Source: Bacteroidota bacterium (lineage in GTDB: Bacteria > Bacteroidota > Bacteroidia > Bacteroidales > GCA-2748055). Taken from it: a DNA stretch of 64,000 nucleotides. The notes below the pieces were generated by a model. That model was not told where the DNA came from. It searched no databases and worked only from the letters and a program-made list of their open reading frames with translations. Made by a program: the position numbers and the translations under genes. The first letter of the stretch is position 1, and every line of letters begins with the position of its first letter. Shown here piece after piece: positions 5,021 to 56,875 of this stretch. The stretch covers positions 13,226 to 77,225 of the forward strand of contig JBDLIQ010000003.1 of NCBI GenBank assembly GCA_039714775.1, read 5' to 3'.

Positions 5021-7090
5021 ATGCGTCTTCATTCCCTAACATACCTGACAGGGCTATTTCTGTATGCCTTTTCGAGCGCATATGCTGTTGACTCGTCCCC
5101 TGTGGCCGAGCGTGGCGTGATCGATCTGAGGGAGTATAACTTCAAGATTGAAGGAGGGGTTGAACTTACCGGTGAATTTGAGTTCTACTGGAACCAGATG
5201 CTTAACCCCCTCCTTGAAGGTGATTCCGGGGTGGTCAACTACATCCAGGTCCCCGGATCGTGGTATAAGCTCAGAAGCGAGATACCCGAGATTTCCCGTT
5301 ACGGTTTTGCAACCTACCGCCTCACCCTCTTGCTTCCCAAAGGTGTGGATGAGCTCGCCTTTAAAATTTCAGGTATCTTTTCAGCTTCAGGATTTTTCCT
5401 CGATGGCAAGGCCATTGAATACCTTGGGTTCCCGGGGGTGAATAAGTATCAGACCCTGATTAAGTACAGCACTCCGCTGGTTACCGGAAAGGTACAAGGT
5501 GAGCAGGCCGAGCTGCTGATCAAGGTCTCCAACTATGACCACCAGTTCAGCGGCATTGTGGGAGGTATTACGGTTGGTCTGCCCGAACAGATGCAAACCC
5601 AGCGGCAAAATGAGCTGTTTCACGGACATTTCATGATCGGGGCATTTCTGATTATCGGGATCTATTTTCTTGGACTTTACCTGATCAGGACGGAGCAATA
5701 CAGGGTCTATTTCTCCATGATCTGTATGCTGATGGCCTTACGGGTAGCAATTTACACACAGCTTCCTTTTCTCAGTCAATTGAATATGAACGGTTTAATG
5801 ATGGTGCGGCTTGATTTTCTGCATATCTACTTTTTCGTACCCTTCTTTACGTTAATGATCAGATCCCTTTTTCCCTATGAATTTCCAAAACTGCTGTTCA
5901 GGCTGATCATGTGGATCTCTGCAGTTTTTGTTGTCATTGTGGTTGTGTCACCCATCAGTCTTTTCTCCTTTTCACTCACCTGGTTCTTTGTTTTCTTCCT
6001 GATGTTAAGCATGGTATTTCTCTATGTGCTGTTCCTTGCCTGGAGCAGGGGAAGAAGCTACGCACCTGCCTTCACCATCGGATTATTGATTCTCTTTCTC
6101 GGTGCACTGAATGATATGCTCATGGAGATTGATCTCATCGAAAGCCAGTTTCTCGGTCATTATGCCATGTTTGCTTACCTGCTGGTATACGCCTATATTT
6201 TCGCGGGCAAATCCAATGAGCTTCAAAAGAAGGCTAAAAAACTATCCGGTGAGCTTAACCAGGTTAGAAACAACCTGGAGGACCTGGTGGAGGAGCGTAC
6301 CACAGAATTGCAGTTGGTATCAAAGCAGCTGTCGCAACAGAAGAGGAAGCTTGAGGTTTCCAACCGGGACCTGGTTGAAGCCATGAATGCCAGGAACAGG
6401 CTTTTTGCCATTATAGGTCACGACGTGAGGGCACCCATCGGTTATACCAGACAGGCCCTGGAGATGCTCCTCGAAAACAAGGAGATGAAAAGACAGGAGC
6501 GGGATGACCTGCTCAGGATGATGGCCAGCTCCTCGGAGATTACATACAACCTCCTGGATAACCTGCTTGTATGGGGTCGTTCCCAGACCGGGAAACTTAA
6601 AGCAAACCCGGTATCATTCCCGCTGAAAGCACTGGTCGATGAGAGCCTGGAACTTGTGAATATCGGGATCAGGGAGAAAGAGCTGAAAATAGAGGTGGTG
6701 ATCAGCGATGAGCACTGTATCGAAGCGGACAGGGACCAGCTCTATGTTGTGATCAGGAACCTGCTCAGTAATTCCATTAAGTTCTCCCCCTGGAGGGGAA
6801 GCATTCGCATATCATCCGTTTCGACAAATGGTGAGGTGATTATTGACATTACGGATACCGGGATCGGAATCCCAGAGTCCATCCGGTCCAAACTGCTTGA
6901 TACAAAATCCCATATCACCACCAACGGAACAAAAGGTGAGAAGGGGTCGGGACTCGGGTTGAAGATCTGTAACGAAATCATCTACTCCAACAATGGATGG
7001 ATGGAGATTAAAAGTGAATCTGGCTCAGGGACCACAGTCAGGATCGGGATTAAGGCGGCAAAAAAGAGCACAAAAAAGACTACTCCTTAG
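5021..7090 (+). CDS. sensor histidine kinase, 7TMR-DISM type
   Basis: Signal peptide, an extracellular domain with the GEFEFYWNQML motif, about 7 TM helices and a coiled coil. H-box FAIIGHDVRAPIG, N-box RNLLSNSIKFS, G1 DTGIGIP, G2 GSGLGLKIC. No response regulator is adjacent. Confidence 0.9.
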   Translation: MRLHSLTYLTGLFLYAFSSAYAVDSSPVAERGVIDLREYNFKIEGGVELTGEFEFYWNQMLNPLLEGDSGVVNYIQVPGSWYKLRSEIPEISRYGFATYRLTLLLPKGVDELAFKISGIFSASGFFLDGKAIEYLGFPGVNKYQTLIKYSTPLVTGKVQGEQAELLIKVSNYDHQFSGIVGGITVGLPEQMQTQRQNELFHGHFMIGAFLIIGIYFLGLYLIRTEQYRVYFSMICMLMALRVAIYTQLPFLSQLNMNGLMMVRLDFLHIYFFVPFFTLMIRSLFPYEFPKLLFRLIMWISAVFVVIVVVSPISLFSFSLTWFFVFFLMLSMVFLYVLFLAWSRGRSYAPAFTIGLLILFLGALNDMLMEIDLIESQFLGHYAMFAYLLVYAYIFAGKSNELQKKAKKLSGELNQVRNNLEDLVEERTTELQLVSKQLSQQKRKLEVSNRDLVEAMNARNRLFAIIGHDVRAPIGYTRQALEMLLENKEMKRQERDDLLRMMASSSEITYNLLDNLLVWGRSQTGKLKANPVSFPLKALVDESLELVNIGIREKELKIEVVISDEHCIEADRDQLYVVIRNLLSNSIKFSPWRGSIRISSVSTNGEVIIDITDTGIGIPESIRSKLLDTKSHITTNGTKGEKGSGLGLKICNEIIYSNNGWMEIKSESGSGTTVRIGIKAAKKSTKKTTP

Positions 7091-9509
7091 TTTTAATCTT
7101 TACCCTTGATGGTCTGAGGCCATCGGCACTGGCACTGATAATCAGGTCTCCCGGTTCGCTTCCGGCCTGCAGGATCAGGAGCTGTTTTCCCTTTTTCATC
7201 TTCCTGGAGGAGGAGCCCGGAGGTGTATGATCGGCCAGGTCGCCATTGTCGATTACCCTGATTTTCCCCGGGCCGTTCAGCTGGTAACTCACCATGTGGT
7301 CGCTGTGGGGATTGAGGATTCCCAGGCTGTCTCTGACCTCGGTGGTGATATGTACCATGTCACGGTTTTCGGAGCTGACCTGCTCCCGGTCAGGATGCAT
7401 CGCCAGGGCATATGCTTCATAAGCGGTGGTCAGTGTATCGGAGACCTTAACCATTTTTCCACGTTCGTCATTATAGTAAGCATGGGCAACCAGTTGTCCC
7501 GGCTCAAAGGGGATCCTGGACTTGATCACCCCGTCGGTAAAGGCACTCCTGTTATGTGTGGCGATCAGGCTGTCATTCAGGTGTAATTCGATCTTTTCGC
7601 AATTGGTGAATACCACCACCTCTTTAGCTCCCGAACTCTTTTCAAAGGACCAGTGATCAACCAGCGGCGGGGCCACCCAACTTGCCTGCCAACCGGAGAT
7701 GTTGTTCAGGGAATCTGCCAGAACGGAATCTTTCACAGTCAGTTTAACGAGGGGGTCCTCCCTGTAATGTGATGCGATATACCAGGCGTGGGGCTTGATA
7801 AAGCCATTGGTAAGCATCAGTCCGTTCCTGAAGCCACGGTCGGGCCATCCGGCCGATTCGCCCAGGTAATCAATTCCTGCCCAGATAAATTGTCCGGCCA
7901 CAAAGGGTTCCATGTCATTCCATGAATTGTCACTGAAATCGATGACCTGGTAATCCTCCGGACGGTTGGTCCCGTAAATTTTAGTCTCTGAGGCAATGAA
8001 AACCTGGTCGGGATATTTCTCGTGCCAGGTTTTAAAAGAGTCGGTTCGGTAGTTGTACGAAACCACCGGCGAAACATGCATCATGCGGGAGGGAACCTCT
8101 TCTCCCTGGCTCTTTTCGCCGTGGTGCAGTGCACAGGTAACCTCACGGGAGGGATCGATGGATCTGACCAGTTGCATCAACTCTTTGTAGATTACCACAC
8201 CCCTGTCAGGATCATTCCGCTGTTCCAGGGTTTCGTTGCCTACACTCCAGAGCACCACCGACGGGTGGTTCCTGTCGCGCCGGATGAAATCGGCAAGATC
8301 GCTTTCCCAGTGATCTTTCATGATGGGATTCTCACCGCCTGCCTGCCAGTCAATTTCCCATTTGTCATACATCTCATCGATGACCAGAAATCCCATATGG
8401 TCACAAAGGTCGAGCAGGCCGGGAGCATGGGGATTGTGGGCCAGCCGGATTGCATTTACACCCAGTTCTTTCAGTTGTAACAACCTTCTTCTCCAGCTCT
8501 CCATCGGAACAGCAGCACCCAGTTCGCCTCCGTCGTGGTGCAGGCAGACACCCTTCAGGACCACCTTCTCACCGTTCAGCAAAAACCCACGGTCAGGATC
8601 AAATTCAGCACTGCGGATCCCGTGAAGGGTGCGGGTGTGGTCAATCTGACGGTTGTGGTCCATCAGGTAACAATTCACTGCATAGAGTTGTGGGGTTTGG
8701 GTGGACCACAGCATCGCCTCCTCAATGGAGAAGCTGTTTATTGCTGTATCCTTTTCGCCCGACTTCAGGAACCCGCTGCTTTTTCCTTCTGCCACCAGGC
8801 GTCCTTTCGGGTCCACAATATCATAACCAATCTCGAACCGCTGTGATTTCCTGCTATGGTTCTCAATCTCAAGAGATACCGACAGCGCTGCGTTCCCAAA
8901 GCTGTCCACACTGGAAACAACCGAGCTTCCCCAGACAGGAATGTGCAGCGAACTGGTGGCAATAAGCCTGACATGCCTGTAGATACCGGCTCCTGAATAC
9001 CACCTGTCCACAGGCACTCTGCTGCAATCGGTCCGTACAGCAATTACATTGAGTGAATCGGTCCTGACCAGGGATGAGACATCGTGGTAAAAGCTTGAAT
9101 AGCCATAGCGATGTTGTCCCAGGTGGGTACCGTTGAAGTAGATATCGGCATCCATGTAGACCCCCTCGAAAAGAAGGAAGAATTTATCCTTATCCTGGTA
9201 TTCACTCAAATCCAGATTTTTCCGGTACCACCCAATCCCTCCCGGGTAGTGACCACTGGCCACCGCAATGCCAGACCGGTTGGAGTGATCAACAGGATAC
9301 TCGATCATCCAGTCATGGGGAATCGAGATGTACTGCCACCGGGTGTCATCAAAGTCGGTCTCTCCGGCCCCCTCCTGGTCACCCTGGATAAACCGCCAGT
9401 TCAGATCGATGTTGGTTTCAACACGGGGCTGAGGCTCCCTGGTCCGGTAGACAAACCAGGTGGCCAACACCATGGTCATAATGAGTACGATCCAGTGAAT
9501 GATCTTCAT
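7080..9509 (-). CDS. glycoside hydrolase family 2 (beta-galactosidase/beta-glucuronidase-like)
   Basis: 809 aa. The GH2 sugar-binding domain shows GWYRK...LLFEGVYMDADIYFNG...RWYSGAGIYRHVRL. The TIM barrel shows NAIRLAHNPH and the acid/base motif VVLWSVGNE. Confidence 0.9.
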   Translation of the reverse strand: MKIIHWIVLIMTMVLATWFVYRTREPQPRVETNIDLNWRFIQGDQEGAGETDFDDTRWQYISIPHDWMIEYPVDHSNRSGIAVASGHYPGGIGWYRKNLDLSEYQDKDKFFLLFEGVYMDADIYFNGTHLGQHRYGYSSFYHDVSSLVRTDSLNVIAVRTDCSRVPVDRWYSGAGIYRHVRLIATSSLHIPVWGSSVVSSVDSFGNAALSVSLEIENHSRKSQRFEIGYDIVDPKGRLVAEGKSSGFLKSGEKDTAINSFSIEEAMLWSTQTPQLYAVNCYLMDHNRQIDHTRTLHGIRSAEFDPDRGFLLNGEKVVLKGVCLHHDGGELGAAVPMESWRRRLLQLKELGVNAIRLAHNPHAPGLLDLCDHMGFLVIDEMYDKWEIDWQAGGENPIMKDHWESDLADFIRRDRNHPSVVLWSVGNETLEQRNDPDRGVVIYKELMQLVRSIDPSREVTCALHHGEKSQGEEVPSRMMHVSPVVSYNYRTDSFKTWHEKYPDQVFIASETKIYGTNRPEDYQVIDFSDNSWNDMEPFVAGQFIWAGIDYLGESAGWPDRGFRNGLMLTNGFIKPHAWYIASHYREDPLVKLTVKDSVLADSLNNISGWQASWVAPPLVDHWSFEKSSGAKEVVVFTNCEKIELHLNDSLIATHNRSAFTDGVIKSRIPFEPGQLVAHAYYNDERGKMVKVSDTLTTAYEAYALAMHPDREQVSSENRDMVHITTEVRDSLGILNPHSDHMVSYQLNGPGKIRVIDNGDLADHTPPGSSSRKMKKGKQLLILQAGSEPGDLIISASADGLRPSRVKIKTKE

Positions 9510-10171
9510 CAGGTAGTGGATGTTTTTAGAAGGGTCTCAAACCGGTTAATGAATTTATGGATGGTATCAAAATGTGCAGCTTTTAACCTGCGGTTTACCG
9601 CCGGCTGTGAAATCCCCAGGCTCTGACTGATCTCCACCTGATTTTTTCCCGTCAGGTTCAGAAACATCGCTTCGGCCTGTTCGTCGGACCAGCTATGGAT
9701 CATGATATCCATAAAGCTGCAGGTGAGATCAAACTCTGCATTCAAAGCCTCTTCGGTGGTCAGAATGCTGATCCGCTGATTACGCTTCATCTTCTCTTTT
9801 CCATCTGTAGAGGTCCTGAAAGCCGTACCATCCGATTCCCTGAGATGGTCCTGTGCAAACTCCACGGGACCGATCCCGACAGATACCTTTAATTCGAGCC
9901 GTTCTCCAAGCTCTTTATAGGAGAGAAACCGGAATGCACTGAAGAACATCATCAACGAGTGAATGGAGTGGACCGGCGATTCTGAGAGTGCGAGAAATTC
10001 ATCCATCCGGATGATCTCATACTTCAGCAAGCCGGTTTCCGGAACCATCCTGTTTACAGCCTGGAAAGATGCCCTGATCAGGTCGGGGATCTTACTGAAC
10101 TGTTCGTCAGATACCTTGAAACCGGGGGCAAGTTCCCCAGCGACAACAGCGTAATGTGCCTTTTTCGTCAT
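9509..10171 (-). CDS. hypothetical protein with C-terminal HTH (sigma-70 region-4-like)
   Basis: 220 aa. The C-terminal segment is NQVEISQSLGISQPAVNRRLKAA. Its stop overlaps the GH2 start as ATGA on the minus strand at 9507-9511. Confidence 0.6.
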   Translation of the reverse strand: MTKKAHYAVVAGELAPGFKVSDEQFSKIPDLIRASFQAVNRMVPETGLLKYEIIRMDEFLALSESPVHSIHSLMMFFSAFRFLSYKELGERLELKVSVGIGPVEFAQDHLRESDGTAFRTSTDGKEKMKRNQRISILTTEEALNAEFDLTCSFMDIMIHSWSDEQAEAMFLNLTGKNQVEISQSLGISQPAVNRRLKAAHFDTIHKFINRFETLLKTSTT

Positions 10172-10479: not shown

Positions 10480-11790
10480 ATGAACCGAACCATTTTTATT
10501 ATATTTTTTTCCTTGATCCTGACAGGTTGCCCGGCTAAGAATCAGGAGCAGAGTCAGGAACAGAATCAGGAGCAGAGTCAGGAACAGAATCAGGATCAGG
10601 TGCAGGTGCAGAGCCAGGATCAGAATCAGGATCAGGTGCAGGGACCCACGCGCTGGAGGGGTCCTTCGGGCGATGGGATCTATCCGGATAAGGGGTTATT
10701 AACAGAGTGGCCGGCCAGAGGCCCTGAAGTGCTCTGGACCTATGAACAGCTTGGCCAGGGGCACTCTTCGGTGGTGGCCGATGGCGGTTTTCTATATACC
10801 ATGGGAATGATTGATACGACCGGATACCTGTTCAAGTTTGAAAAGGGTGGAGAGGTGGTCTGGAAAGAGACCTACGGACCTGAATTCTCAGAAAGCTACT
10901 ACGGTACCAGGGGTTCACCCGTTATCGCAGGCGATAAGATCTACCTTGAGAGTGGATACGGGAAGCTCGTATGCCTGAGCAATTCCGACGGATCGATCCT
11001 CTGGTCGAAAAAGTTGTTCGAGGATTTCGATGGCAAGAACATCAGATGGGGGGTGAACGAGACCCCGGTGGTGGATGGCGATATCGTCTATGCCACTCCG
11101 GGAGGAAAGATCAACAATGTTGTGGCGCTTGACCGCCACACCGGAAAGACGATCTGGAGCAGCAAGGCAAAAAGGGAGCAGACCGCCTACTGCACTCCGC
11201 TTCTGTTTGAACACAACGGAAGGAAGATACTGGCCACACATACAACCTCACACCTGATTGGACTGGATGCCGGAACCGGGGTGCTCCTTTGGTCGCATAA
11301 GCAGCCCAACAAGTACTCGGTTCATGCCAACACACCCATTTATCACAACGGATCGCTATACTACTTTAGCGGATACGGTCAGGGGGGAGGCTTGCTGAAA
11401 CTGAGCCAGGACGGGAGTTCAGTGACGCAAACCTGGTTTACTCCCAATCTGGACAGCCGCATGGGCGGCGCGGTACTGGTGGATGGTTATCTTTATGGTT
11501 CGGGGGATATGAACCGGCAATGGCGCTGCCTTGAGTGGGAAACCGGGAAGGAGATGTATGTCTCCACCGCCCTGGGCAAAGGGGTGGTCATCTACGCCGA
11601 CGGGATGCTCTACTGTTACAGCGAAAAGGGTGAGCTGGCTTTGGTTAAGGCTGATCCTTCAGCTTTTAAGGTGGTGAGCAAGACCCGGGTGACCCATGGC
11701 TCCGAACAGCACTGGGCCCACCCCATGATCCACGACGGTGTCCTCTATGTACGGCACGGAAAGGCACTGGTAGCGTATAAAGTCAGGTAG
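10480..11790 (+). CDS. BamB/PQQ-like beta-propeller lipoprotein, paralog 1
   Basis: The start is moved to the ATG at 10480 (MNRTIFIIFFSLILTGC, a lipobox). A Q/E/N-rich linker follows, then WRGPSGDGIYPD and repeated blade motifs (DG.LY, G..LW) ending in HDGVLYVRHGKALVAY. Confidence 0.85.
   Translation: MNRTIFIIFFSLILTGCPAKNQEQSQEQNQEQSQEQNQDQVQVQSQDQNQDQVQGPTRWRGPSGDGIYPDKGLLTEWPARGPEVLWTYEQLGQGHSSVVADGGFLYTMGMIDTTGYLFKFEKGGEVVWKETYGPEFSESYYGTRGSPVIAGDKIYLESGYGKLVCLSNSDGSILWSKKLFEDFDGKNIRWGVNETPVVDGDIVYATPGGKINNVVALDRHTGKTIWSSKAKREQTAYCTPLLFEHNGRKILATHTTSHLIGLDAGTGVLLWSHKQPNKYSVHANTPIYHNGSLYYFSGYGQGGGLLKLSQDGSSVTQTWFTPNLDSRMGGAVLVDGYLYGSGDMNRQWRCLEWETGKEMYVSTALGKGVVIYADGMLYCYSEKGELALVKADPSAFKVVSKTRVTHGSEQHWAHPMIHDGVLYVRHGKALVAYKVR
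10540..10641 (+). repeat. in-frame tandem repeat encoding a (Q-E/D/N/S/V-Q) linker
   Basis: AATCAGGAGCAGAGTCAGGAACAG occurs twice exactly (10540-10563 and 10564-10587). AATCAGGATCAGGTGCAG-type 18-nt units follow up to 10641. The translation is NQEQSQEQNQEQSQEQNQDQVQVQSQDQNQDQVQ. Confidence 0.85.
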
Positions 11791-11854
11791 TCAGGTAGTT
11801 GGGTAGTTGGAGTCTGGTAGTTCGGAGTTTTATTGTGAATCAAACAAATATGTC

Positions 11855-13114
11855 ATGAAAAAATTCGGATGTATCTTTCTGTTTGTTGCATTGTTGGTGG
11901 GTTGCTCGGCTGATAAAAAGAGCTGGACATCAGAACCCACAAGGTGGTTGGGTCCCTCTGCCGATGGCCACTATCCCGATACAGGTCTGCTGAAAACCTG
12001 GCCGGAGGAGGGGCCGGAGATCCTGTGGACCTTTGACAGCCTGGGTATTGGATTCTCCTCAGCGGTCATTCAGAATGGATTCCTCTATACCACGGGGATG
12101 ATTGACAGTACAGGGTACCTGTTTAAGCTGGATCTTGACGGTACACTTATCTACCGTGTGCCTTACGGTCCGGAATGGAATAGAAGTTATCCTGGTACCC
12201 GGGGATCACCCACGGTGGTTGGAGATAAAATCTACCTGGTAAGCGGAATGGGGAAGGTGATCTGTTTTAACATGGAGGATGGCTCCTTGCTCTGGAGCAA
12301 AGAGATGTTCAAGGATTTTGATGGTGAAAACATCAGGTGGGGAATTAATGAAGCCCCGGTGGTGGATGGGGAGAAGGTCTATGTAACTCCGGGGGGGGAG
12401 GAGAATAATGTGGTTGCCCTGAACAGGCACAGTGGAGAGGTTGTATGGAGTTGTGCAGGGAAAGGAGACCTCTCTGCCTACTGCACCCCGCTGCTCTTTG
12501 AGCACAACAAAAGGAAACTGCTGGTCACCTATTCAGCTGCCAGTTTGCTGGGAATTGATCCCGGTTCGGGGGAGCTGCTCTGGACCGTGGAGGTTCCATG
12601 GCGGTGGTCCGTACACGCCATTACACCCCTCTATCATGAAGGAAAGATCCTTTTTCCATCCGGATCAAATGTTGGTGGAGGTATGTTGCAGCTCAGCGAA
12701 GATGGTAGCTCGGTGGAGGTGCTCTGGAAAAACAGCGTTAGTGATTACAAGTATGCTGCGATACTTATTGATGGGTATGTTTATGAATCATACAGTGACA
12801 ACAAGGAGCTGTCATGGAGGTGTATAGAGTGGGAGACAGGCAATGAGGCCTGGAACTCAAAGGAGCTGGAGTTTGGCAAGGCCATCTGTGCAGATGGCAT
12901 GCTCTATCTCTATTGCGGAAAAGGTGAGCTGGCGCTTGTCAGACCTGATCCTGAGAGACTGGAGATCGTCAGCCAGATTGAAGTTACACATGGATCAGGA
13001 TTGCACCTGGCCGTTCCGGTAATGCATGATGGGGTCCTCTATATCAGGCACGGAGAGTCAATGATTGCATATAATGTCAGGCAGGGAACCACACCCCGGG
13101 AACTGAGCCGTTAG
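11855..13114 (+). CDS. BamB/PQQ-like beta-propeller lipoprotein, paralog 2
   Basis: ATG at 11855 gives MKKFGCIFLFVALLVGC (lipobox). Colinear with paralog 1 along its whole length, with about half the residues identical by eye, for example AYCTPLLFEHN, WRC.EWETG and VTHGS...HDGVLY.RHG. Confidence 0.85.
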   Translation: MKKFGCIFLFVALLVGCSADKKSWTSEPTRWLGPSADGHYPDTGLLKTWPEEGPEILWTFDSLGIGFSSAVIQNGFLYTTGMIDSTGYLFKLDLDGTLIYRVPYGPEWNRSYPGTRGSPTVVGDKIYLVSGMGKVICFNMEDGSLLWSKEMFKDFDGENIRWGINEAPVVDGEKVYVTPGGEENNVVALNRHSGEVVWSCAGKGDLSAYCTPLLFEHNKRKLLVTYSAASLLGIDPGSGELLWTVEVPWRWSVHAITPLYHEGKILFPSGSNVGGGMLQLSEDGSSVEVLWKNSVSDYKYAAILIDGYVYESYSDNKELSWRCIEWETGNEAWNSKELEFGKAICADGMLYLYCGKGELALVRPDPERLEIVSQIEVTHGSGLHLAVPVMHDGVLYIRHGESMIAYNVRQGTTPRELSR

Positions 13115-13157
13115 GTGAAGTATCTCATGAGGCGAATGCCGAATAAACAATGAAATA

Positions 13158-14420
13158 GTGAAGGATTCATTAAAGATAATAGCCATAGCAGGGTTCATCG
13201 CATCTCTTTTCGGTTGTGCTGATGCAGCAGCCCAGGATACCCAGTGGAGAGGTTTAAACAGGGATGGGATCTACCTGGATACCAGCCTATTGAGATCGTG
13301 GCCGGAGGAGGGGCCCGAACTGATCCTTAAAATGGAGGGGCTGGGAAATGGTTACTCCACACCGGTGCTCTACAAAGACAATCTGTTTATTACCGGAAGG
13401 AGGGACAGCCTGGATGTGATCACAAAGGTGAACCTGCAGGGGACCATCCAATGGGAGACTGTCTATGGGAAGGCATGGAACCAATCGTTCCAGGAGACCA
13501 GGGGGACTCCCACCATCGAAGATGACAGGATCTACCTGACAGGGGGGTTGGGAACGGTTGTCTGTATTGACTCAGGGACCGGAGCGGTGTTATGGAGCCG
13601 CAACACCCACCTGGAGTTTCAGGGGGAGTTCCACAGGTGGGGGATGGTGGAGTCGCTGCTGCTTACTGAAAAGGCGGTGATCTCTTCTCCGGTGGGAACT
13701 CAGACCGCGGTGGTTGCCCTGGATAAGATGAACGGATCCCTTTTGTGGAGATCCGATACGGTAGGAGGTGTCAGGTCTTACGCCTCACCAGTGATGATCA
13801 ATCACAAGGGACGCCGGATGATCCTCTTTACCTCCAACAAGGAGCTTTTTGCCGTGGATCCTGAGAAGGGTACCATATTGTGGGAAAAGGACCTTGTCAC
13901 CGGCTATACGGGTGACAGGAACAGCCGCATCAATACCAATACCCCCCTCTATTTTGACGGAGATGTTTTTATTACCTCCGGCTACAATGCCGAGGCCCTG
14001 ATGTTCACCATTGCACCGGATGGGAGTGATGCTACCCTGAAATGGAGCAGTGCTACACTCGATTCACACCATGGAAGTGTGATCCTGCTGGATGGCTACC
14101 TCTACGGAGCCAACTGGCTCAACAATGGCAACGGGAACTGGGTATGCCAGAGGTGGGAAACCGGGGAGGTGATGTACGAGGAGAAGTGGCACAACAAAGG
14201 GTCCATCATCTATGCCGATGGCATGCTCTACCTGTTTGAGGAGAAACGTGGTCATGTGGGACTTGTGGAGCCGGACCCCGGTTCCTTCAGGCTGGTCAGT
14301 TCGTTCAGGCTCGAAGGTGGATCGGGGCCCTTCTGGGCCCATATGTCCATCTATGACCAGAAACTTCTGATCAGACACGGGGAGGTACTTTTCGTTTACA
14401 ACATTTCAGCTGAGAATTGA
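13158..14420 (+). CDS. BamB/PQQ-like beta-propeller lipoprotein, paralog 3 (more divergent)
   Basis: GTG start giving MKDSLKIIAIAGFIASLFGC (lipobox). It has WRGLNRDGIYLD and the same blade architecture, ending LLIRHGEVLFVYN. Confidence 0.8.
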   Translation: MKDSLKIIAIAGFIASLFGCADAAAQDTQWRGLNRDGIYLDTSLLRSWPEEGPELILKMEGLGNGYSTPVLYKDNLFITGRRDSLDVITKVNLQGTIQWETVYGKAWNQSFQETRGTPTIEDDRIYLTGGLGTVVCIDSGTGAVLWSRNTHLEFQGEFHRWGMVESLLLTEKAVISSPVGTQTAVVALDKMNGSLLWRSDTVGGVRSYASPVMINHKGRRMILFTSNKELFAVDPEKGTILWEKDLVTGYTGDRNSRINTNTPLYFDGDVFITSGYNAEALMFTIAPDGSDATLKWSSATLDSHHGSVILLDGYLYGANWLNNGNGNWVCQRWETGEVMYEEKWHNKGSIIYADGMLYLFEEKRGHVGLVEPDPGSFRLVSSFRLEGGSGPFWAHMSIYDQKLLIRHGEVLFVYNISAEN

Positions 14421-15847
14421 GACTCAACAGCGCAAATATCACCACGGGAATCCTGGCATTGGCCGGTGCACTCTCCATTGCATGGTGGCTGGCAAAGGAT
14501 CCGGTGGCCGGTTTTATCACCACCCAACCGGGACTCGATAACAGGGGCGCCAAAGCTGTGGTCCCCGATATTAAGATCGGCGCCTTTTTTGAGGCTGTTG
14601 GAAATGTTGACTCCGACCTGAAGGAGAGCTGGCCACGGTTCCGGGGCGCCAACTTCGATAACATCAGCCGTTCCCGGGTTGCCCTGGTTGAGAAGTTCCC
14701 TGCCGGGGGTCCCCGGGTCATGTGGAAAGCGGATCTGGGGGAAGGATTTGCCGGAGCAGCAATTTACAAAGGGGTGGTCTATCTGCTCGATTATGATGAG
14801 GAGATGCGGGCCGATCTGCTTCGCGCTTTCTCGCTGGAGACCGGAGAGGCGTTGTGGAACCGGGGGTACTATATCAACCTGAAGCGGAACCACGGAATGT
14901 CCAGGACCGTCCCGGCAGTGACAGAGGAGCATATTGTGACCATCGGTCCCCGGGGACATGTGATGTGTGTTCGCCGGCAGGATGGGGAGCTTCTCTGGGG
15001 CCTCAATGTGGAGCTGGATTACCAGGCAGAGATCCCACTCTGGAATACGGGACAGTGTCCCCTGGTTGATAATGGGAAGGCGATCATCGCCACCGGGGGG
15101 AAGGCCCTGATGGTAGCGGTGGAGCTGGAGAGCGGTGAGGTGTTGTGGGAGACACCCAACAGGCATGGCTGGCAGATGTCGCACTCCTCCGTCATGCCCT
15201 GGGAATACCGGGGCGTGAAGATGTATGTTTACAGCGCTTTCGGCGGAGCGTGTGGAATTGCTGCAGAGGGTCCGCAGGCTGGGGAGGTACTCTGGGAGAC
15301 CACCGCATGGAACCACCAGACCGTGGCCCCTTCGCCGGTCTGCCTGCCAGATGGAAAGGTGTTTATGACAGCCGGTTACGGAGCCGGGAGCATGGTGTTG
15401 CAACTGCATGGGCAGGGGCCGCACTTTGATGCAGAGGTCATCGCCGAGTATGCCCCGAAGGAGGGGTTGGCCAGTGAGCAGCAGACACCAGTGGGTTTTG
15501 AGGGACACCTGCTGGGGATCCTTCCCAAGGATGCAGGCCCCTTAAGGAACCAACTTGTTTGCGTACATCCCGATGATTTTACACGGATTGTCTGGTCAAG
15601 CGGTCCTGAACACAGGTTTGGACTGGGACCCTATATGATTGCTGACAACAAACTTTTTATTGTGAGCGATGACGGCACACTTACCATCGTGAGACCCGGC
15701 ACCAGCAGGTACATGGAGCTGGACAGCTACAAGGTTCTGGAGGGGCACGATGCCTGGGGACCGTTGGCTGTGGCCGATGGTTACCTGGTGATGAGGGACT
15801 CAAAAACCATGGTATGCCTCGATATGGCTGTGGAGAGAAACAGATAG
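14417..15847 (+). CDS. membrane-anchored PQQ-like beta-propeller, paralog 4
   Basis: The TTG start overlaps the preceding stop (TTGA, 14417-14420). N-terminal TM helix ITTGILALAGALSIAWWLA, then WPRFRGANFDNIS and propeller repeats ending DGYLVMRDSKTMVCLD. Confidence 0.75.
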   Translation: MRLNSANITTGILALAGALSIAWWLAKDPVAGFITTQPGLDNRGAKAVVPDIKIGAFFEAVGNVDSDLKESWPRFRGANFDNISRSRVALVEKFPAGGPRVMWKADLGEGFAGAAIYKGVVYLLDYDEEMRADLLRAFSLETGEALWNRGYYINLKRNHGMSRTVPAVTEEHIVTIGPRGHVMCVRRQDGELLWGLNVELDYQAEIPLWNTGQCPLVDNGKAIIATGGKALMVAVELESGEVLWETPNRHGWQMSHSSVMPWEYRGVKMYVYSAFGGACGIAAEGPQAGEVLWETTAWNHQTVAPSPVCLPDGKVFMTAGYGAGSMVLQLHGQGPHFDAEVIAEYAPKEGLASEQQTPVGFEGHLLGILPKDAGPLRNQLVCVHPDDFTRIVWSSGPEHRFGLGPYMIADNKLFIVSDDGTLTIVRPGTSRYMELDSYKVLEGHDAWGPLAVADGYLVMRDSKTMVCLDMAVERNR

Positions 15848-15857
15848 AAACATCGAT

Positions 15858-16823
15858 ATGAAAAAGAGAAGTCTTACTGTAGTTGTACTCGTGATCCTGA
15901 CGCTGATCATTGTGGTGATCACGGTCGATTTCATGAACAACCGGCCCGACCGGCGGGGTGACAATCCTTTTAAACTGGAGGTGGAGCAGTATCGCAAAGT
16001 GGATCCGGCGCTGATCTCTCACAAGGAGAGCCGCAACCTCTCCCTGGGATCACTCAAGGCCACATGTATGGTCTATAACAACGGCCGTTTGTATGTTGCG
16101 GGAGACTCCTCCCTGGTGGTGATCCTCCCCGATGGAACGGCAGAGAAGCGGTACAACATCCTTCCCGGTCCAACCTCTCTGCTTGTGACAGAGAGCCGCT
16201 ATTACATCGGATATAAATCTTTCGTTACCGAATATAACCTGGAGGGAGATATGGTGAAGCGGTGGGATGACCTGGGCGCGCGCGCGGTTATCACCAACCT
16301 GGCAGGCGATGGTGAACAGCTCTATGTGGCCGATGCAGGGAACCGCAGGGTGGTTATCTATACCGCTGCGGGTAAAAGGGTTGGTGTGTTTGAGGGGAAA
16401 GCGGAGGCGGAATCCGGACACGGTTTCATCATTCCCAGTGGCAATTTCGACCTGGCAGTTAACAGCTACGGGGAGCTATGGGTGGTTAATCCGGGCAAAC
16501 ATGCACTGGAAAATTACAGTGACGATGGCCGGATGAGGGGGTTCTGGGAGAACTCCTCGGTGGATATCGAAGGATTCCTGGGGTGCTGCAACCCTGCCAG
16601 GATCACTGTGATGGAGGATGGATCGTTTATAACCAGTGAAAAGGGGCTGATCAGGATCAAGATCCATGACCAGTCGGGCAAGTTGAAAAGCGTGGTGGCA
16701 CCACCCTCCCTTTTTGAGGGGGAGAAGGCACCCGATCTCTGTGTAGATGAACAGGGTGTGGTGTATCTCCTCGATTTTGACCGCAATGTGATACGGATCT
16801 TTGAACCGAAGGAGAATGGATAG
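15858..16823 (+). CDS. membrane-anchored NHL-like six-bladed beta-propeller protein
   Basis: N-terminal TM helix LTVVVLVILTLIIVVITV. NHL-like blades are seen (LYVADAGNRRVVIYTAAGKRVGVF, GELWVVNPGKHALENYSDDG, VVYLLDFDRNVIRIF), plus an internal GCCNP motif. Confidence 0.65.
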   Translation: MKKRSLTVVVLVILTLIIVVITVDFMNNRPDRRGDNPFKLEVEQYRKVDPALISHKESRNLSLGSLKATCMVYNNGRLYVAGDSSLVVILPDGTAEKRYNILPGPTSLLVTESRYYIGYKSFVTEYNLEGDMVKRWDDLGARAVITNLAGDGEQLYVADAGNRRVVIYTAAGKRVGVFEGKAEAESGHGFIIPSGNFDLAVNSYGELWVVNPGKHALENYSDDGRMRGFWENSSVDIEGFLGCCNPARITVMEDGSFITSEKGLIRIKIHDQSGKLKSVVAPPSLFEGEKAPDLCVDEQGVVYLLDFDRNVIRIFEPKENG

Positions 16824-17034
16824 AAGGCGTTTTATAGAGCAGATGGCACGCGGGGGAGTGCTGGCGGGAATGGCCCTGGGAACCGGGTTTCTCCTGGTAA
16901 GGAGACAGGTGACCCTGCAACAGGATTGCGGACTGAACTACCAGTGCAGGGGCTGCAAAAAAATAGAAGAGTGCAGACTGCCCGAAGCCCGGGAGGAGCG
17001 GGCCACTCCAACTAAAACAGCTATTCCGGAATGA
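16816..17034 (+). CDS. small (72 aa) Tat-signal-like protein with a C-x5-C-x2-C-x5-C motif
   Basis: The ATG at 16816 is preceded by GGAG. Sequence MDRRRFIEQMARGGVLAGMALGTGFLLV, then CGLNYQCRGCKKIEEC. It overlaps the NHL gene by 8 nt and the next gene by ATGA (17031-17034). Confidence 0.55.
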   Translation: MDRRRFIEQMARGGVLAGMALGTGFLLVRRQVTLQQDCGLNYQCRGCKKIEECRLPEAREERATPTKTAIPE

Positions 17035-17612
17035 AAAAAGATAAGGCAACAGGCAGACGCGGGTTCATCAACAACGGGGTGAGGGTTACCCTGGGACTTG
17101 CTGTGGCCGGAACCGGTGCCCTGTCGTTGGTGCGATCGGCCAACCCGAAGGAGTATGTGTGGCAGATCGATCCCTTTAAATGTACCCAGTGCGGACGTTG
17201 TGCCACCGATTGTGTCAGGGCCGAATCGGCCGTCAAGTGTGTTCATGCGTATGATGTTTGCGGGTATTGTGATCTTTGTGGGGGCTATTTTAAACCGGGG
17301 GCCAGACTGGAGACCGGTGCAGAGAACCAGCTCTGTCCCACAGCCGCCATCCAGCGGAAATTTATCGAGGAGCCCTATTTCGAATACATCATCGACGAGG
17401 AACTCTGCATCGGATGTGCCAAATGTGTGAAGGGTTGTGACGCATTCGGAAACGGCTCCCTGCAGCTTCAGATCAGGCACGACCTCTGTCTGAACTGTAA
17501 CCAGTGCTCCATAGCCACAGTCTGTCCCTCCGATGCCATCAGCAGGGTGCCGGCATCCACGCCATACATTATCAAAGGACCTGGTACAAAAACCAAGGAG
17601 AAGAGAGGATAA
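17031..17612 (+). CDS. Tat-exported poly-[4Fe-4S] ferredoxin, NapG/NosG/MauM-like
   Basis: Twin-arginine signal TGRRGFINNGVRVTLGLAVAG. Cys clusters are CTQCGRCATDC, CGYCDLCGG, CIGCAKCVKGC and CLNCNQCSIATVCP. Confidence 0.8.
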   Translation: MKKDKATGRRGFINNGVRVTLGLAVAGTGALSLVRSANPKEYVWQIDPFKCTQCGRCATDCVRAESAVKCVHAYDVCGYCDLCGGYFKPGARLETGAENQLCPTAAIQRKFIEEPYFEYIIDEELCIGCAKCVKGCDAFGNGSLQLQIRHDLCLNCNQCSIATVCPSDAISRVPASTPYIIKGPGTKTKEKRG

Positions 17613-17613
17613 C

Positions 17614-18909
17614 ATGCCAGACAGAACCCCAACACGAACCCTTCTGATTATCCTGCTCCTGCTGCTTGCCGGCAGCCCGTTGCTTGCACAGTCTGATCCG
17701 GTTTCGCCCGACTCACATGCGCGGTTTCCCAAGCCCGATTTTGAATCGGGTTATCTGCAACCAACTCCAACCACCCCCGAACCCAGGAGCGTGGCCCTTG
17801 AGTACTTCGATGTTTTTGTCCTGCTGGCAGTTCTCTCCCTGGCCTCATGGCTGGCCATCAGGAGACGCTCCAGAAGGGGATTGCTCTGGCTCTCCCTTTT
17901 TTCACTGCTCTATTTCGGATTCTACCGCGATGGCTGCATCTGCTCCATTGGGGCCATCCAGAATGTGGCGCTTTCGATCTTTGATCCCGCCTATGCCATC
18001 TCCCTGGCCGCCCTTCTGTTTTTCCTGCTACCCCTTGTCTTCGCCCTTTTCTTCGGCCGCACCTTCTGTGCGGCAGCATGCCCCCTGGGTGTTATCCAGG
18101 ATCTGATTGTAATCAGTCCCGTCTCTCTGCCCAGCTGGATACGTAAGGCACTTGCCTTTATCCCGGTGGTCTACCTGGGACTTGCAGTGCTGCTGGCGGC
18201 AACAGGAAGCGACTTTATCATCTGCAGGTACGACCCCTTCGTGGGAATCTTCCGGATGGATGGCCCCTTTCTGATGATCTTCCTGGGGGTCACCTTTCTT
18301 TTGCTGGGCATGTTCTTCGCCCGGCCTTACTGCAGGGTGTTCTGTCCTTACGGGGTGCTGCTGGGGTGGATGTCCAGGTTTTCGAAATGGCACCTGAGCA
18401 TCACACCTTCGGAGTGCATCAGCTGCAAACTCTGCAAGGATTCCTGTCCCTTCGATGCCATCAATGTTCCGGAGGAGCAGGCGTACAGGAGACCCGAGGT
18501 AAGCAGGAAAAACCTGAAGCGGTTTGTTCTATACGTGGGACTGATCCCCCTGCTTACCCTGCTGGGAGGCTGGATCGGTAACAGGTCGCATATCTACCTG
18601 AGCAGGGCACATCCCGATCTCTACCTGGCCGAACAGCTAATCAGCAATCCGGGGTTGAGGGAGGATGAGGAGAACCTGGATGTGCAGGCTTTTCTTGAGT
18701 CAGGAAAAACCTTTGACCAGCTGGTGGAGGAGGCATCGGTCATCAGGGATAGATTTAGAAGGGGGAGCAGCTTACTGGGCGGTTTCCTGGGACTTGCACT
18801 GGGGATCACCCTGATGAACCAGGTGGTGTTCCGGCGAAGGGAGGATTACGAGCCCCACAGGGTCGATTGCTTCAGCTGCGGAAGGTGTATGGATTATTGT
18901 CCGGTGTAA
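17614..18909 (+). CDS. membrane polyferredoxin, NapH/NosH/MauN-like
   Basis: The ATG at 17614 lies one nt after the preceding stop. It has multiple TM helices, two CX3CP motifs (FCAAACPLG, YCRVFCPYG) and two CxxCxxCxxxCP motifs (CISCKLCKDSCP, CFSCGRCMDYCP). Confidence 0.8.
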   Translation: MPDRTPTRTLLIILLLLLAGSPLLAQSDPVSPDSHARFPKPDFESGYLQPTPTTPEPRSVALEYFDVFVLLAVLSLASWLAIRRRSRRGLLWLSLFSLLYFGFYRDGCICSIGAIQNVALSIFDPAYAISLAALLFFLLPLVFALFFGRTFCAAACPLGVIQDLIVISPVSLPSWIRKALAFIPVVYLGLAVLLAATGSDFIICRYDPFVGIFRMDGPFLMIFLGVTFLLLGMFFARPYCRVFCPYGVLLGWMSRFSKWHLSITPSECISCKLCKDSCPFDAINVPEEQAYRRPEVSRKNLKRFVLYVGLIPLLTLLGGWIGNRSHIYLSRAHPDLYLAEQLISNPGLREDEENLDVQAFLESGKTFDQLVEEASVIRDRFRRGSSLLGGFLGLALGITLMNQVVFRRREDYEPHRVDCFSCGRCMDYCPV

Positions 18910-46329: not shown

Positions 46330-46348
46330 TGAAGTCGAAAGTTACAGG

Positions 46349-47902: not shown

Positions 47903-47998
47903 AATATCGGAATTTTATTCCTAAGTTGTAGGTCATTTGAAGCAACGGCAGGATAATGAGCAAAACTGTTGATTTTTGGAATTGTATTGATCTTAATC

Positions 47999-49243: not shown

Positions 49244-49292
49244 AAGTTGTTAAAGGGTTACAGACTACAGAATGTTGCATAGAGATCTTCGC

Positions 49293-50426: not shown

Positions 50427-50454
50427 TTGGATTTAGTCTCAAAGTTTAGTATCA

Positions 50455-51807: not shown

Positions 51808-51826
51808 CCTTCTAACTCACTGTCAT

Positions 51827-52504
51827 ATGCTTCTGTCGCTGAAGAACATCACCAAAGGATTCGGAAATCCCGGGGAGCTCTCCCACCGGAAGGTGCTGGA
51901 GGATCTTTCACTGGATGTGGAACAGGGGGAAAGCATCGCCATCCTGGGACCGTCGGGTTCGGGAAAGACCACACTGTTGAATGTTATCGGGGGACTGGAC
52001 CATCCCGACCGGGGATCGGTGCGTTTTATGGGAGAGGAGATCTCCGCATTTTCCACCTCTGCAATGGACCGATACAGGAACAGGGAGATCGGGTTTGTCT
52101 TTCAGTTCCACCACCTGCTTCCACAATGCACGCTGCTTGAAAATGTCCTGATCCCCACACTGGTGAATCCAAAGGCCGGTGAGGGAAGCAATGAGCGTGC
52201 CGAAGGGTTGATGAAGCGGGTGGGGATCTGGGAGTACCGGGACAAACTGCCAGGGAAGGTGTCGGGAGGAGAGTGCCAGCGTGCCGCCGTGGTGAGGGCC
52301 ATGATCAATGCACCCTCCCTGCTGCTGGCCGATGAACCCACCGGGGCACTCGACAGGGAGAATGTGGAGACCATGGCCGATCTGCTGCTGGAGCTGAACC
52401 GGGAGGATGGATTGACACTTCTGATGGTTACCCACTCCACCGTCCTGGCAAAACGGATGGGAAGGACCCTTGAGCTGACAGGTGGGAACCTTCGTGAAAT
52501 CTGA
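51827..52504 (+). CDS. ABC transporter ATP-binding protein (LolD/MacB/YbbA family)
   Basis: ATG at 51827. Walker A GPSGSGKTT, Q-loop FVFQ, signature VSGGECQR, Walker B LLLADEPTGALD and H-loop VTHS. Confidence 0.9.
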   Translation: MLLSLKNITKGFGNPGELSHRKVLEDLSLDVEQGESIAILGPSGSGKTTLLNVIGGLDHPDRGSVRFMGEEISAFSTSAMDRYRNREIGFVFQFHHLLPQCTLLENVLIPTLVNPKAGEGSNERAEGLMKRVGIWEYRDKLPGKVSGGECQRAAVVRAMINAPSLLLADEPTGALDRENVETMADLLLELNREDGLTLLMVTHSTVLAKRMGRTLELTGGNLREI

Positions 52505-52525
52505 TTCACTGACTGAGATACGGAT

Positions 52526-56867: not shown

Positions 56868-56875
56868 AAGGTGAT

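Follow-up and report, generated by a model that had tools for sequence, protein, structure and literature searches.

A conserved envelope gene cluster of beta-propellers, a NapH-like membrane polyferredoxin and a Stn/Nfn-like module in anaerobic bacteria of more than ten phyla

In a 64,000-nucleotide stretch of a Bacteroidota genome (GenBank assembly GCA_039714775.1, contig JBDLIQ010000003.1, positions 13,226 to 77,225), referred to here as the window, eight same-strand genes encode five beta-propeller proteins, a small four-cysteine protein (the Cys4 protein), a ferredoxin resembling NapG and a membrane polyferredoxin resembling NapH. The question raised by this locus is what such a set of genes serves. 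The original prediction, made from the sequence alone, described an operon with no known catalytic partner and suggested a redox system at the periplasm or cell surface. The comparison of related loci presented here shows that these eight genes form the front half of a conserved set of about 17 genes, probably an envelope redox system, the second half of which is encoded further downstream in the same window. The distribution and gene order of this system are considered first, followed by its protein families, the possible direction of electron flow and the explanations that compete with it.

Conservation and extent of the gene cluster

With the NapH-like protein as the anchor, 519 relatives were identified among the species representatives of the Genome Taxonomy Database (GTDB), and the 80 best loci were examined first; further anchored scans raised the set to 240 loci, and the adjacency counts given below cover those loci with enough visible sequence. 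The order in the 80 best loci comprises one to four lipoprotein propellers, a membrane-anchored propeller corresponding to the fourth propeller of the window (P4), the NHL propeller, the small protein, the NapG-like protein and the NapH-like protein, followed at once by further genes. In Draconibacterium orientale, the genes past that of the NapH-like protein encode a 624-amino-acid (aa) membrane-anchored PQQ_2 propeller (P610 in the window), a 780-aa fusion of NuoE and NuoF (NuoEF), a GltD-like flavoprotein, a propeller and a GT4 glycosyltransferase.

The adjacency counts are nearly uniform along most of the cluster. The NapG-like gene stands directly upstream of the NapH-like gene in all 205 loci, the NHL gene upstream of the NapG-like gene in 192 of 195, and the P4 gene upstream of the NHL gene in 174 of 177, across phyla. 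Downstream, the NapH-like gene is followed by P610 (196/199 loci), P610 by NuoEF (163/167), NuoEF by the GltD-like gene (150/152), and the latter by a secreted propeller, P384, in 108 of 138 loci, including those of KSB1, Calditrichota, Pirellulales and Lentisphaeria. Further along, P384, or P384 together with GT4, precedes a gene for an ATP-binding cassette (ABC) ATPase in 39 of 43 loci, and the ATPase gene precedes an FtsX gene in 14 of 15; GT4 itself, usually a member of the cluster, was found in 100 of the 240 loci, across phyla. The starts and stops of the P610, NuoEF and GltD-like genes are often overlapping or closely spaced, and in a Pirellulales locus the two halves of the cluster are permuted yet still contiguous. 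Judged from these sequence comparisons, the arrangement lies far beyond chance.

An exhaustive profile search recovered the full-length NapH-like architecture in 403 clusters at 50% identity (E<1e-30). Carriers among the Bacteroidota belong to the Prolixibacteraceae, Rikenellaceae, Tannerellaceae, Prevotellaceae and Cytophagales. Further carriers belong to KSB1, Calditrichota, Latescibacterota, Chitinispirillales, Aminicenantes/Acidobacteriota, Hydrogenedentota, Auribacterota, Omnitrophota and Armatimonadota. The Planctomycetota are represented by Pirellulales, Phycisphaerae and Sedimentisphaerales, and Verrucomicrobiota, Kiritimatiellales/Pontiellaceae and Lentisphaeria/Victivallales complete the set. 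By these homology searches, the system spans hundreds of anaerobic bacteria in more than ten phyla, so that the association of the propellers with the NapG/NapH-like pair, rather than being confined to a single genome, forms a unit conserved across phyla. A 649-aa open reading frame (ORF) upstream in a Verrucomicrobia locus (L081) was dropped from consideration as a high-GC artefact.

The claim that the eight genes lack a known partner therefore stands only in part. No NapA, NosZ, cytochrome or cupredoxin occurs among the cluster genes examined in the 240 loci, the cluster genes and adjoining ORFs inspected in the fetched loci contained no NapA/NapB, NosZ or methylamine dehydrogenase/MauB partner, and Pfam searches of the cluster proteins of the window gave no NosZ, cupredoxin, NosD or NosL match. 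What the claim missed is the conserved second half, which lies at 42125-55798 (Table 1).

The two halves are separated in the window by a SusC/SusD locus encoding an extracytoplasmic function (ECF) sigma factor, FecR, SusC, SusD, two M16 peptidases, three thioredoxin/TlpA-like proteins, and cadherin-like and TPR proteins. At 0.438, its GC content is lower than that of the flanks (0.54-0.57); the 240 related loci contain none of its genes, and across 225 loci the NapH-like and P610 matches lie a median of 87 nt, and at most 2.6 kb, apart. Because of its low GC content, its absence from related loci and the short gap found elsewhere, this locus is regarded as an insertion that splits the cluster and not as a part of the system. 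The low-GC lipoprotein gene in the spacer between the GltD-like and P384 genes, which has a homologue in only one of the 240 related loci, is a second, small insertion and likewise stands outside the system.

Table 1. Features of the window in the two halves of the cluster and beside them
Feature	Position	Strand	Basis
P1 lipoprotein PQQ_2-type 8-bladed propeller	10480-11790	+	lipobox LTGC, Q/E-rich tether, PQQ_2 96 bits
P2 lipoprotein PQQ_2 propeller	11855-13114	+	lipobox LVGC, PQQ_2 92 bits
P3 lipoprotein PQQ_2 propeller	13158-14420	+	lipobox LFGC, PQQ_2 83 bits
P4 PQQ_2 propeller, N-terminal membrane anchor, conserved core	14417-15847	+	PQQ_2 91 bits
NHL 6-bladed propeller, membrane-anchored, core	15858-16823	+	Pfam NHL match
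Small Cys4 protein, 72 aa	16816-17034	+	four-cysteine knuckle; Tat-signal-like or anchor N-terminus
NapG-like Tat-signal periplasmic ferredoxin	17031-17612	+	Fer4 family matches
NapH-like membrane polyferredoxin	17614-18909	+	Fer4_5 twice and Fer4
SusC/SusD locus, 23.2 kb, low GC	18926-42095	+	between NapH-like and P610 genes
P610 membrane-anchored PQQ_2 propeller, core	42125-43957	+	PQQ_2 107 bits
NuoE-NuoF fusion (HydB/StnB/NfnB type), cytoplasmic	43942-46329	+	Pfam matches, solved relatives
GltD/NfnA/StnC-like flavoprotein	46349-47902	+	Fer2_4, Fer4_20, FAD/NAD(P) domain, Nqo3-like Fe-S domain
Low-GC lipoprotein gene, 424 aa	47969-49243	+	GH43-like match below cut-off; GC 0.416
P384 secreted PQQ_2/ACSF4-type propeller	49272-50426	+	Beta-prop_ACSF4 223 bits, PQQ_2 169 bits
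GT4 glycosyltransferase	50455-51807	+	Glycos_transf_1 and Glyco_transf_4 matches
LolD/YbbA/DevA-like ABC ATPase	51827-52504	+	LolD model 240 bits against cut-off 308; start set at ATG 51827
FtsX/MacB-type duplicated permease, 1090 aa	52526-55798	+	FtsX twice and MacB_PCD; weak match to ADOP duplicated permease family
Two NAD-dependent epimerase/dehydratase-fold genes	55791-58366	+	Epimerase/3Beta_HSD matches, weak HpnA-like matches
220-aa protein, C-terminal helix-turn-helix (HTH), divergent from cluster	9509-10171	-	weak HTH_24 and Sigma70_r4 matches

Protein families of the two halves

The coupling of the first eight genes on one strand was borne out by the ORF table and by the junctions read from the DNA, where the stop of P3 and the start of P4 share a TTGA overlap at 14417-14420, an 8-nt overlap occupies 16816-16823, and the two junctions beyond it read ATGA at 17031-17034 and TAAC-ATG at 17610-17616. 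The Cys4 frame opens at TTG 16801, and the conserved methionine is that at 16816. The protein features described earlier were also found, including the three lipoboxes (LTGC, LVGC and LFGC), the hydrophobic N-terminal anchors of P4 and the NHL protein, the motifs DRRRFIE and GRRGFIN, and, in the NapH-like protein, two CX3CP motifs (CAAACP and CRVFCP) and two CxxCxxCxxxCP motifs (CISCKLCKDSCP and CFSCGRCMDYCP). Profile searches assigned P1-P4 to PQQ_2 at 83-96 bits, for which the Pfam cut-off is 27.6 bits, the fifth protein to NHL, the seventh to Fer4 families and the eighth to Fer4_5, twice, and Fer4. The eight proteins had zero matches to molybdopterin, cupredoxin or cytochrome families in Pfam and NCBIfam, a motif check of the cluster sequences found no CxxCH haem motif in any cluster protein, and an Rfam scan of the whole window returned zero matches and thus offered no riboswitch clue.

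The designation NapGH-like expresses architectural resemblance and not family membership, because the NapH-like protein stays below the cut-offs of the NCBIfam models for NapH (36.8 bits against 213.05 for TIGR02163 and 29.6 against 234 for NF007013), and for the NapG-like protein no NapG/MauM family model is listed at E<=0.01 in NCBIfam, only generic Fer4. The NapH-like protein comprises a signal peptide, approximately six core hydrophobic segments and two more inside its ferredoxin domain, where the two ferredoxin motifs lie about 130 aa apart and the insert between them holds the additional segments. A conserved RFPxPxF..GY motif past the signal peptide is predicted to be periplasmic, and all cysteine motifs are kept across phyla, together with a GCxC pair and the cysteine of an IC.YDPF motif in loops predicted to face the periplasm. 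In the NapG-like protein, the RR pair and 17 cysteines are conserved in 77 sequences, and the 16 cluster cysteines, which are invariant, are consistent with four [4Fe-4S] clusters. Sequence searches of solved structures with the NapH-like protein, P4 and the NapG-like protein gave generic ferredoxin or BamB matches only, with no close relative of the NapG-like protein.

NapH-like proteins have been described as modular transmembrane electron conduits paired with various periplasmic enzymes, including pyrroloquinoline quinone (PQQ) propeller dehydrogenases (Meheust et al. 2021, PMC8238504). The pair described here shares with NapGH, NosGH and MauMN a membrane protein that bears two CX3CP motifs together with a 2x[4Fe-4S] domain in the cytoplasm, a four-cluster ferredoxin exported by twin-arginine translocation (Tat), and modular use with a periplasmic enzyme; nos clusters additionally combine a beta-propeller enzyme with an ABC system. 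It differs from them in its cleavable signal peptide, its periplasmic N-terminal motif and extra cysteines on the periplasmic face, in the 130-aa insert that brings two hydrophobic segments into the ferredoxin domain, in the fusion to a propeller in some phyla, and in being flanked by an NAD(P)H-oxidising module. Furthermore, NosR, PceC and most of the NapH-like systems surveyed carry an FMN-binding domain or ApbE (PMC8238504), whereas the present cluster has neither.

The Cys4 protein has zero Pfam or NCBIfam matches. Its cysteine spacing, C-x5-C-x2-C-x6-C, is followed by LPEA, and at least 95% of 45 orthologues keep the four cysteines and R8, whereas the second arginine of the presumed twin-arginine motif is a lysine in some of them. 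Divergent four-cysteine versions with varying spacing occur in Kiritimatiellales, Lentisphaeria and Verrucomicrobia. The protein looks like an anchored metal- or cluster-binding knuckle.

A physical link between the two halves is suggested by gene fusions. In Verrucomicrobia-like high-GC organisms, the NapH-like protein and P610 are joined in single polypeptides of approximately 1000-1136 aa (P0123 and P0148), and the same arrangement is present in the Verrucomicrobia locus L081 (10001-13050). Topology was assessed from the hydrophobic segments and the positive-inside rule; provided that the segments are transmembrane, the fusion is topologically sensible because the NapH-like protein's C-terminal ferredoxin motif would lie in the cytoplasm, as would the N-terminus of P610. 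The fusions argue that the two proteins form one physical unit, with P610 as the probable partner of the NapH-like protein. A Planctomycetaceae locus encodes a P610 of 1019 aa (L101 3649-6708).

The cytoplasmic module of the second half consists of NuoEF and the GltD-like protein. In NuoEF, a thioredoxin-like domain with [2Fe-2S] is combined with an FMN/NADH site, the [4Fe-4S] region of NuoF and, at the C-terminus, a 2x[4Fe-4S] domain; the best solved relatives of NuoEF are NfnB 9n5u_B (3e-207) and 8oh5_B (8e-207). The best solved relatives of the GltD-like protein are 9bov_A, 8oh5_C and 9n5u_A (963-1178 aa; E 2e-79 to 2e-92), the best-scoring stretch being residues 1-296, aligned to the first approximately 296 residues of the solved chains. 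The solved relatives of both proteins are subunits of bifurcating transhydrogenases of the Bfu type (StnABC/NfnABC). StnABC is a characterised bifurcating NADH/NADPH/ferredoxin enzyme, and its family also includes the NADPH-dependent sulfur oxidoreductase Nso (PMC7483475). The module shares with Stn/NfnABC the NuoE-like part, the HydB-type NuoF-like part with an extra [2Fe-2S] and a C-terminal 2x[4Fe-4S] domain, and a GltD-like FAD/NADPH subunit whose N-terminus carries a [2Fe-2S] domain of the NuoG type. In contrast to Stn/NfnABC, NuoE and NuoF are fused here; StnC and NfnA possess a C-terminal molybdopterin-like domain, whereas the GltD-like subunit of 517 aa has none and matches no molybdopterin family; and the module is encoded inside an envelope gene cluster, beside a membrane polyferredoxin. 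The NapH-like polyferredoxin could replace the soluble ferredoxin of the Stn/Nfn enzymes.

The lipoprotein propellers, which had been placed at the centre of the finding, are its variable part, whereas P4, the NHL protein, P610 and P384 are conserved. Copies of P1-P3 range from zero to four between loci, and a P2-type copy is present in only 13 of the 240. P1 and P2 share 52% identity, either shares about 36% with P3, and each shares about 24% with P4; P1-P3 are regarded as lineage-specific accessory paralogues of P4. The motifs KRNHGMSRT, MSHSS, EQQT, KD and RD of P4 are kept in at least 95% of 69 sequences, and the GCCNP motif of the NHL protein (C243-C244-N245-P246) is invariant in 64; the Verrucomicrobia homologue retains GCCNP and has a Tat signal of its own, SRRRFVE. 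An AlphaFold2 model of the NHL protein is 6-bladed (pLDDT 82), with generic NHL domains as the best Foldseek matches. P610 combines three N-terminal hydrophobic segments, predicted to be transmembrane, with an acidic/Ser-Thr linker and a PQQ_2 propeller that is modelled with 8 blades (pLDDT 79); its best Foldseek matches are BamB (TM-score approximately 0.7) and tetrathionate hydrolase, and a conserved loop, NHYGHSS, stands ahead of a blade. The matches of the NHL and P610 models show similarity of fold and do not discriminate between enzyme and scaffold. The invariant polar/His loop motifs of P4 and P610 sit just before inner blade strands, which is unlike a featureless scaffold and is not proof of catalysis.

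BamB and tetrathionate hydrolase are PQQ_2-type propellers without PQQ, and the cluster propellers share their 8-bladed fold and PQQ_2 family. The BamB models are the best NCBIfam matches of the cluster propellers, all below cut-off (31-133 bits against 285 for TIGR03300 and 21-110 against 423 for NF008351). P4 and P610 differ from both in being anchored in the inner membrane by N-terminal helices, in having invariant loop motifs of their own, and in a genetic context that is redox-related and not that of Bam. A NosZ-like copper enzyme was considered and rejected, as the propellers have no His cluster and no cupredoxin is present; the precedent of NosZ cited in the original prediction thus remains a loose one, with a resemblance in organisation only.

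The ABC ATPase of the second half is similar to LolD and DevA, ATPases of lipoprotein and glycolipid extractors. In some lineages, same-strand genes upstream of the cluster encode a radical SAM protein, a fusion of DUF116 with a polyprenyl-diphosphate synthase, a prenyltransferase-fold protein and a squalene-hopene-cyclase-like protein, and start/stop overlaps tie this isoprenoid module to the cluster in Kiritimatiellales, Lentisphaeria, Auribacterota and several Bacteroidales (L240 130-5550; L093 1322-6678; L131 2165-7143; L114, L128, L144, L159 and L163-L165). The cyclase-like proteins score 63-77 bits against a squalene-hopene cyclase cut-off of 431, and the class-II motif DxDDTA (VPDADDTA) is present in 11 of 12 sequences. 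With hopanoid loci, the system shares the coupling, in four phyla, of a polyprenyl synthase, a DxDDTA class-II cyclase-like protein and a radical SAM protein to the cluster, as well as the GT4, the two weakly HpnA-like epimerases and the lipid-extractor-type ABC system of the window. It differs from them in that no HpnCDE or HpnG-K set was seen and the module is absent from the window, and we know of no hopanoid locus with propellers or a NapGH/NuoEF chain. Taken together, GT4, the LolD/DevA-like ATPase with FtsX, the HpnA-like epimerases and the isoprenoid module suggest an exported glycolipid or isoprenoid lipid.

Direction of electron flow and competing explanations

The reading favoured here, with a probability of roughly 0.4, is that of an iron-sulfur conduit, fed by NAD(P)H, through which electrons reach periplasmic propellers. 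The Stn/Nfn-like module would oxidise NAD(P)H, possibly by a bifurcation that gives low-potential electrons, and would hand electrons on to the 2x[4Fe-4S] domain that the NapH-like protein has in the cytoplasm. They would then cross the membrane through this protein, which bears conserved cysteines on each of its two predicted faces (the two CX3CP motifs on one, GCxC and IC.YDPF on the other), and arrive at the NapG-like ferredoxin of the periplasm and, perhaps, at the Cys4 protein. The membrane-tethered propellers (P4, NHL, P610 and P384) would finally use the electrons for a periplasmic reductive reaction, and quinol would not be needed at any step. As to the substrate class, an exported envelope glycolipid or isoprenoid lipid, made and extracted by the GT4 and ABC/FtsX module, is tentatively put forward; it is favoured because, in four phyla, translational coupling links the cluster with a polyprenyl-diphosphate synthase, a DxDDTA cyclase-like protein and a radical SAM protein.

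Several points weigh against this reading. A Rikenellaceae metagenome-assembled genome (MAG) (L106) contains the genes of the NapH-like protein, P610, P384, GT4, the ABC ATPase and FtsX without NuoEF or the GltD-like gene between them, and the NAD(P)H module is therefore not obligatorily present in cis. In the window, the 23.2-kb insertion probably breaks up joint transcription of the two halves and may have uncoupled their expression. The propellers show no recognisable redox cofactor site, haem or His cluster, with only two to four conserved His per propeller, and the Foldseek matches of P610 to BamB and to tetrathionate hydrolase (E approximately 1e-16 to 1e-17) are equally good. With regard to the substrate, only 12 of the 116 loci whose upstream sequence is visible (approximately 10%) have the isoprenoid module next to the cluster; it is absent from the window and from the visible flanks of close relatives, and GT4 has no specific NCBIfam assignment. 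Co-inheritance, gene fusion, a consistent topology and family assignment are established, whereas the electron donor, the way in which electrons flow and the chemistry at the end of the chain are inferred.

A bolder formulation, held with more reserve, describes a haem-free, quinone-independent envelope redox machine in which low-potential electrons, driven by a bifurcation-type NAD(P)H module, would pass through the fusion unit of the NapH-like protein and its propeller to periplasmic propeller reductases with a new cofactor or thiol chemistry, for which the GCCNP motif and the Cys4 protein would be candidates. Its role would be either a cryptic reduction of elemental sulfur (S0), Fe(III) or humic quinones in fermentative members of the Planctomycetes-Verrucomicrobia-Chlamydiae (PVC) and Fibrobacteres-Chlorobi-Bacteroidetes (FCB) groups, or the modification by reduction, and the export, of a cyclic terpenoid glycolipid that is made anaerobically.

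The main rival to the favoured conduit with a lipid substrate is an electron sink for fermenters, in which NAD(P)H would be oxidised through the iron-sulfur chain onto polysulfide or S0, Fe(III) chelates or humic quinones, with the propellers as terminal reductases; we consider it unlikely on balance. Fermentative anaerobes of the FCB and PVC groups make up most of the carriers. Kiritimatiellales reduce S0, ferric citrate as well as anthraquinone-2,6-disulfonate (AQDS) during fermentation; K. glycovorans reportedly has neither quinones nor c-type cytochromes and is nevertheless able to reduce AQDS and metals; the Kiritimatiellales strains yielded neither a polysulfide reductase nor a molybdoenzyme; and S0 reduction, by a mechanism stated to be unknown, has also been reported for Planctomycetes (PMC7356697). 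Isolates and MAGs of the Pontiellaceae have the cluster, the cytoplasmic module belongs to the same family as Nso (PMC7483475), the fold of P610 matches that of tetrathionate hydrolase 6l8a (E approximately 3e-16, 18% identity), the NHL protein has a vicinal cysteine pair, and the system contains no haem. This support is purely correlative, however, and a search aimed at K. glycovorans and the two Pontiella type strains could place the cluster only in Pontiellaceae isolates B1224 and B12227 and in MAGs. An electron sink would also leave the co-conserved GT4, ABC/FtsX and terpene-cyclase genes unexplained, and there is no evident outer-membrane route for insoluble acceptors.

Less probable still is a menaquinol dehydrogenase of the NapGH type that feeds the propellers as terminal respiratory enzymes, with NuoEF and the GltD-like protein merely adjacent. 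NapGH, NosGH and MauMN are precedents for quinol dehydrogenase modules, and the architecture of the NapH-like protein (two CX3CP and two ferredoxin motifs), together with its four-cluster partner with a Tat signal, agrees with them; quinol is also regarded as the electron donor of NapH-like proteins in some systems (PMC8238504). The NapG/NapH-like pair, as originally recognised, does constitute a conserved functional unit with the propellers. Its reading as a quinol dehydrogenase is unproven and has become less likely because the NapH models score far below cut-off (37 and 30 bits against 213 and 234), no NapG/MauM match was obtained, and the pair stands in near-constant adjacency, across phyla, to the NAD(P)H-oxidising Stn/Nfn-like module; this adjacency makes NAD(P)H the more probable electron source. 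The insert in the ferredoxin domain, the extra hydrophobic segments and the fusion to P610 are, moreover, not features of NapH.

An inward flow, in which the propellers would be periplasmic dehydrogenases of sugars, alcohols or reduced sulfur compounds and electrons would pass through the NapG/NapH-like pair to the Stn/Nfn-like module, reducing NAD(P)+ by confurcation, is quite improbable. Genome analysis has revealed gene clusters in which a NapH-like protein accompanies the PQQ alcohol dehydrogenase ExaA (PMC8238504), enzymes of the Bfu type can run in either direction (PMC7483475), and the PQQ_2 and PQQ families are related. A PQQ dehydrogenase identity of the propellers was nevertheless rejected, as the respective models (TIGR03075/TIGR03074, cut-off 480) give 22-59 bits for P1-P4, 48 for P610 and 78, the maximum for any propeller, for P384, and no pqq biosynthesis genes were found in the loci. 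Furthermore, the reduction of NAD(P)+ from such donors is thermodynamically demanding, and the GT4 and ABC/FtsX genes would again be left unexplained.

Equally doubtful is a non-catalytic arrangement, in which the propellers would be BamB-like platforms of an envelope assembly or trafficking machine driven by FtsX/ABC and the iron-sulfur proteins a redox sensor or regulator: BamB is the top Foldseek match of P610 and provides the best, if sub-cut-off, NCBIfam models, and the ATPase is LolD-like, but about a dozen iron-sulfur clusters and two flavins are a heavy investment for a sensor, the invariant polar, His and Cys motifs of P4, P610 and NHL are of a kind usual in active or binding sites, and the Tat export of the ferredoxin, and of the NHL protein in Verrucomicrobia, points to cofactor-loaded periplasmic proteins.

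Neighbouring genes, novelty and meaning of the system

The two epimerase-fold genes, possible members of the cluster, are joined to the FtsX gene by overlaps of 8 nt and 4 nt, and the flanks of related loci stop at the FtsX gene; the second protein (56864-58366, 500 aa) ends in a Cys-rich tail, WSCCQGH...HWCPEC, that is zinc ribbon-like. Directly past the cluster, a 120-aa ORF at 58981-59343 (GEIWIINLNPTIGSEIKKTRPAVIV) encodes a product that we take to resemble a PemK/MazF-type toxin. On the other side, a GH2 glycosidase gene and the gene of the 220-aa HTH protein lie upstream and divergent (7080-10171, minus strand), a pair found beside the cluster only in the closest relatives (24-25 of 240 loci); the HTH protein is a possible regulator, and its membership of the cluster is uncertain. 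In about 15 loci, including that of Draconibacterium orientale (L052 3381-5154), a LytTR-type two-component system of a histidine kinase and a response regulator lies between the first and second lipoprotein propeller genes and may be a lineage-specific regulator of the cluster. Long antisense ORFs of 264-435 aa within the high-GC cluster genes (14396-15508, 16938-17732, 43999-44862 and 56939-58246, all on the minus strand) are probably artefacts of GC-rich coding sequence.

The view that the system is undescribed was upheld, as no database name and no paper in the searched literature refers to it. Its homologues are named 'hypothetical', 'PQQ-binding-like', 'BamB', '4Fe-4S binding', 'polyferredoxin' or 'NosR/NirI' in the databases, and full-text literature searches found no description of this cluster. 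In terms of predicted gene content, it is new with respect to the known NapH-like conduits in that a flavinylated domain is lacking and in that it includes a Bfu-type NAD(P)H module, a fused or adjacent membrane-anchored propeller, several conserved propellers and the Cys4 protein, an ABC extractor with GT4 and, in some cases, a terpene-cyclase module.

Culturable carriers are available for genetics, namely Draconibacterium, Mariniphaga, Labilibaculum, Gaoshiqia and isolates of the Pontiellaceae. If the favoured reading is true, the Bfu (Stn/Nfn) family would be extended to a membrane-coupled role, the very large and only generically annotated 'PQQ-like / BamB-like' propeller families of the PVC and FCB groups would gain a first functional handle, and the open question of how Kiritimatiellales reduce sulfur, iron and AQDS (PMC7356697) would become directly testable; alternatively, a hidden terpenoid-lipid pathway would be revealed. 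More broadly, the cluster would represent a widespread route for moving reducing power out of the cytoplasm without quinones or cytochromes in anaerobic polysaccharide degraders of sediments, rumen and digesters, with carriers including Bacteroidota, Planctomycetota, Kiritimatiellota, Lentisphaerota, KSB1, Aminicenantes and Hydrogenedentota.

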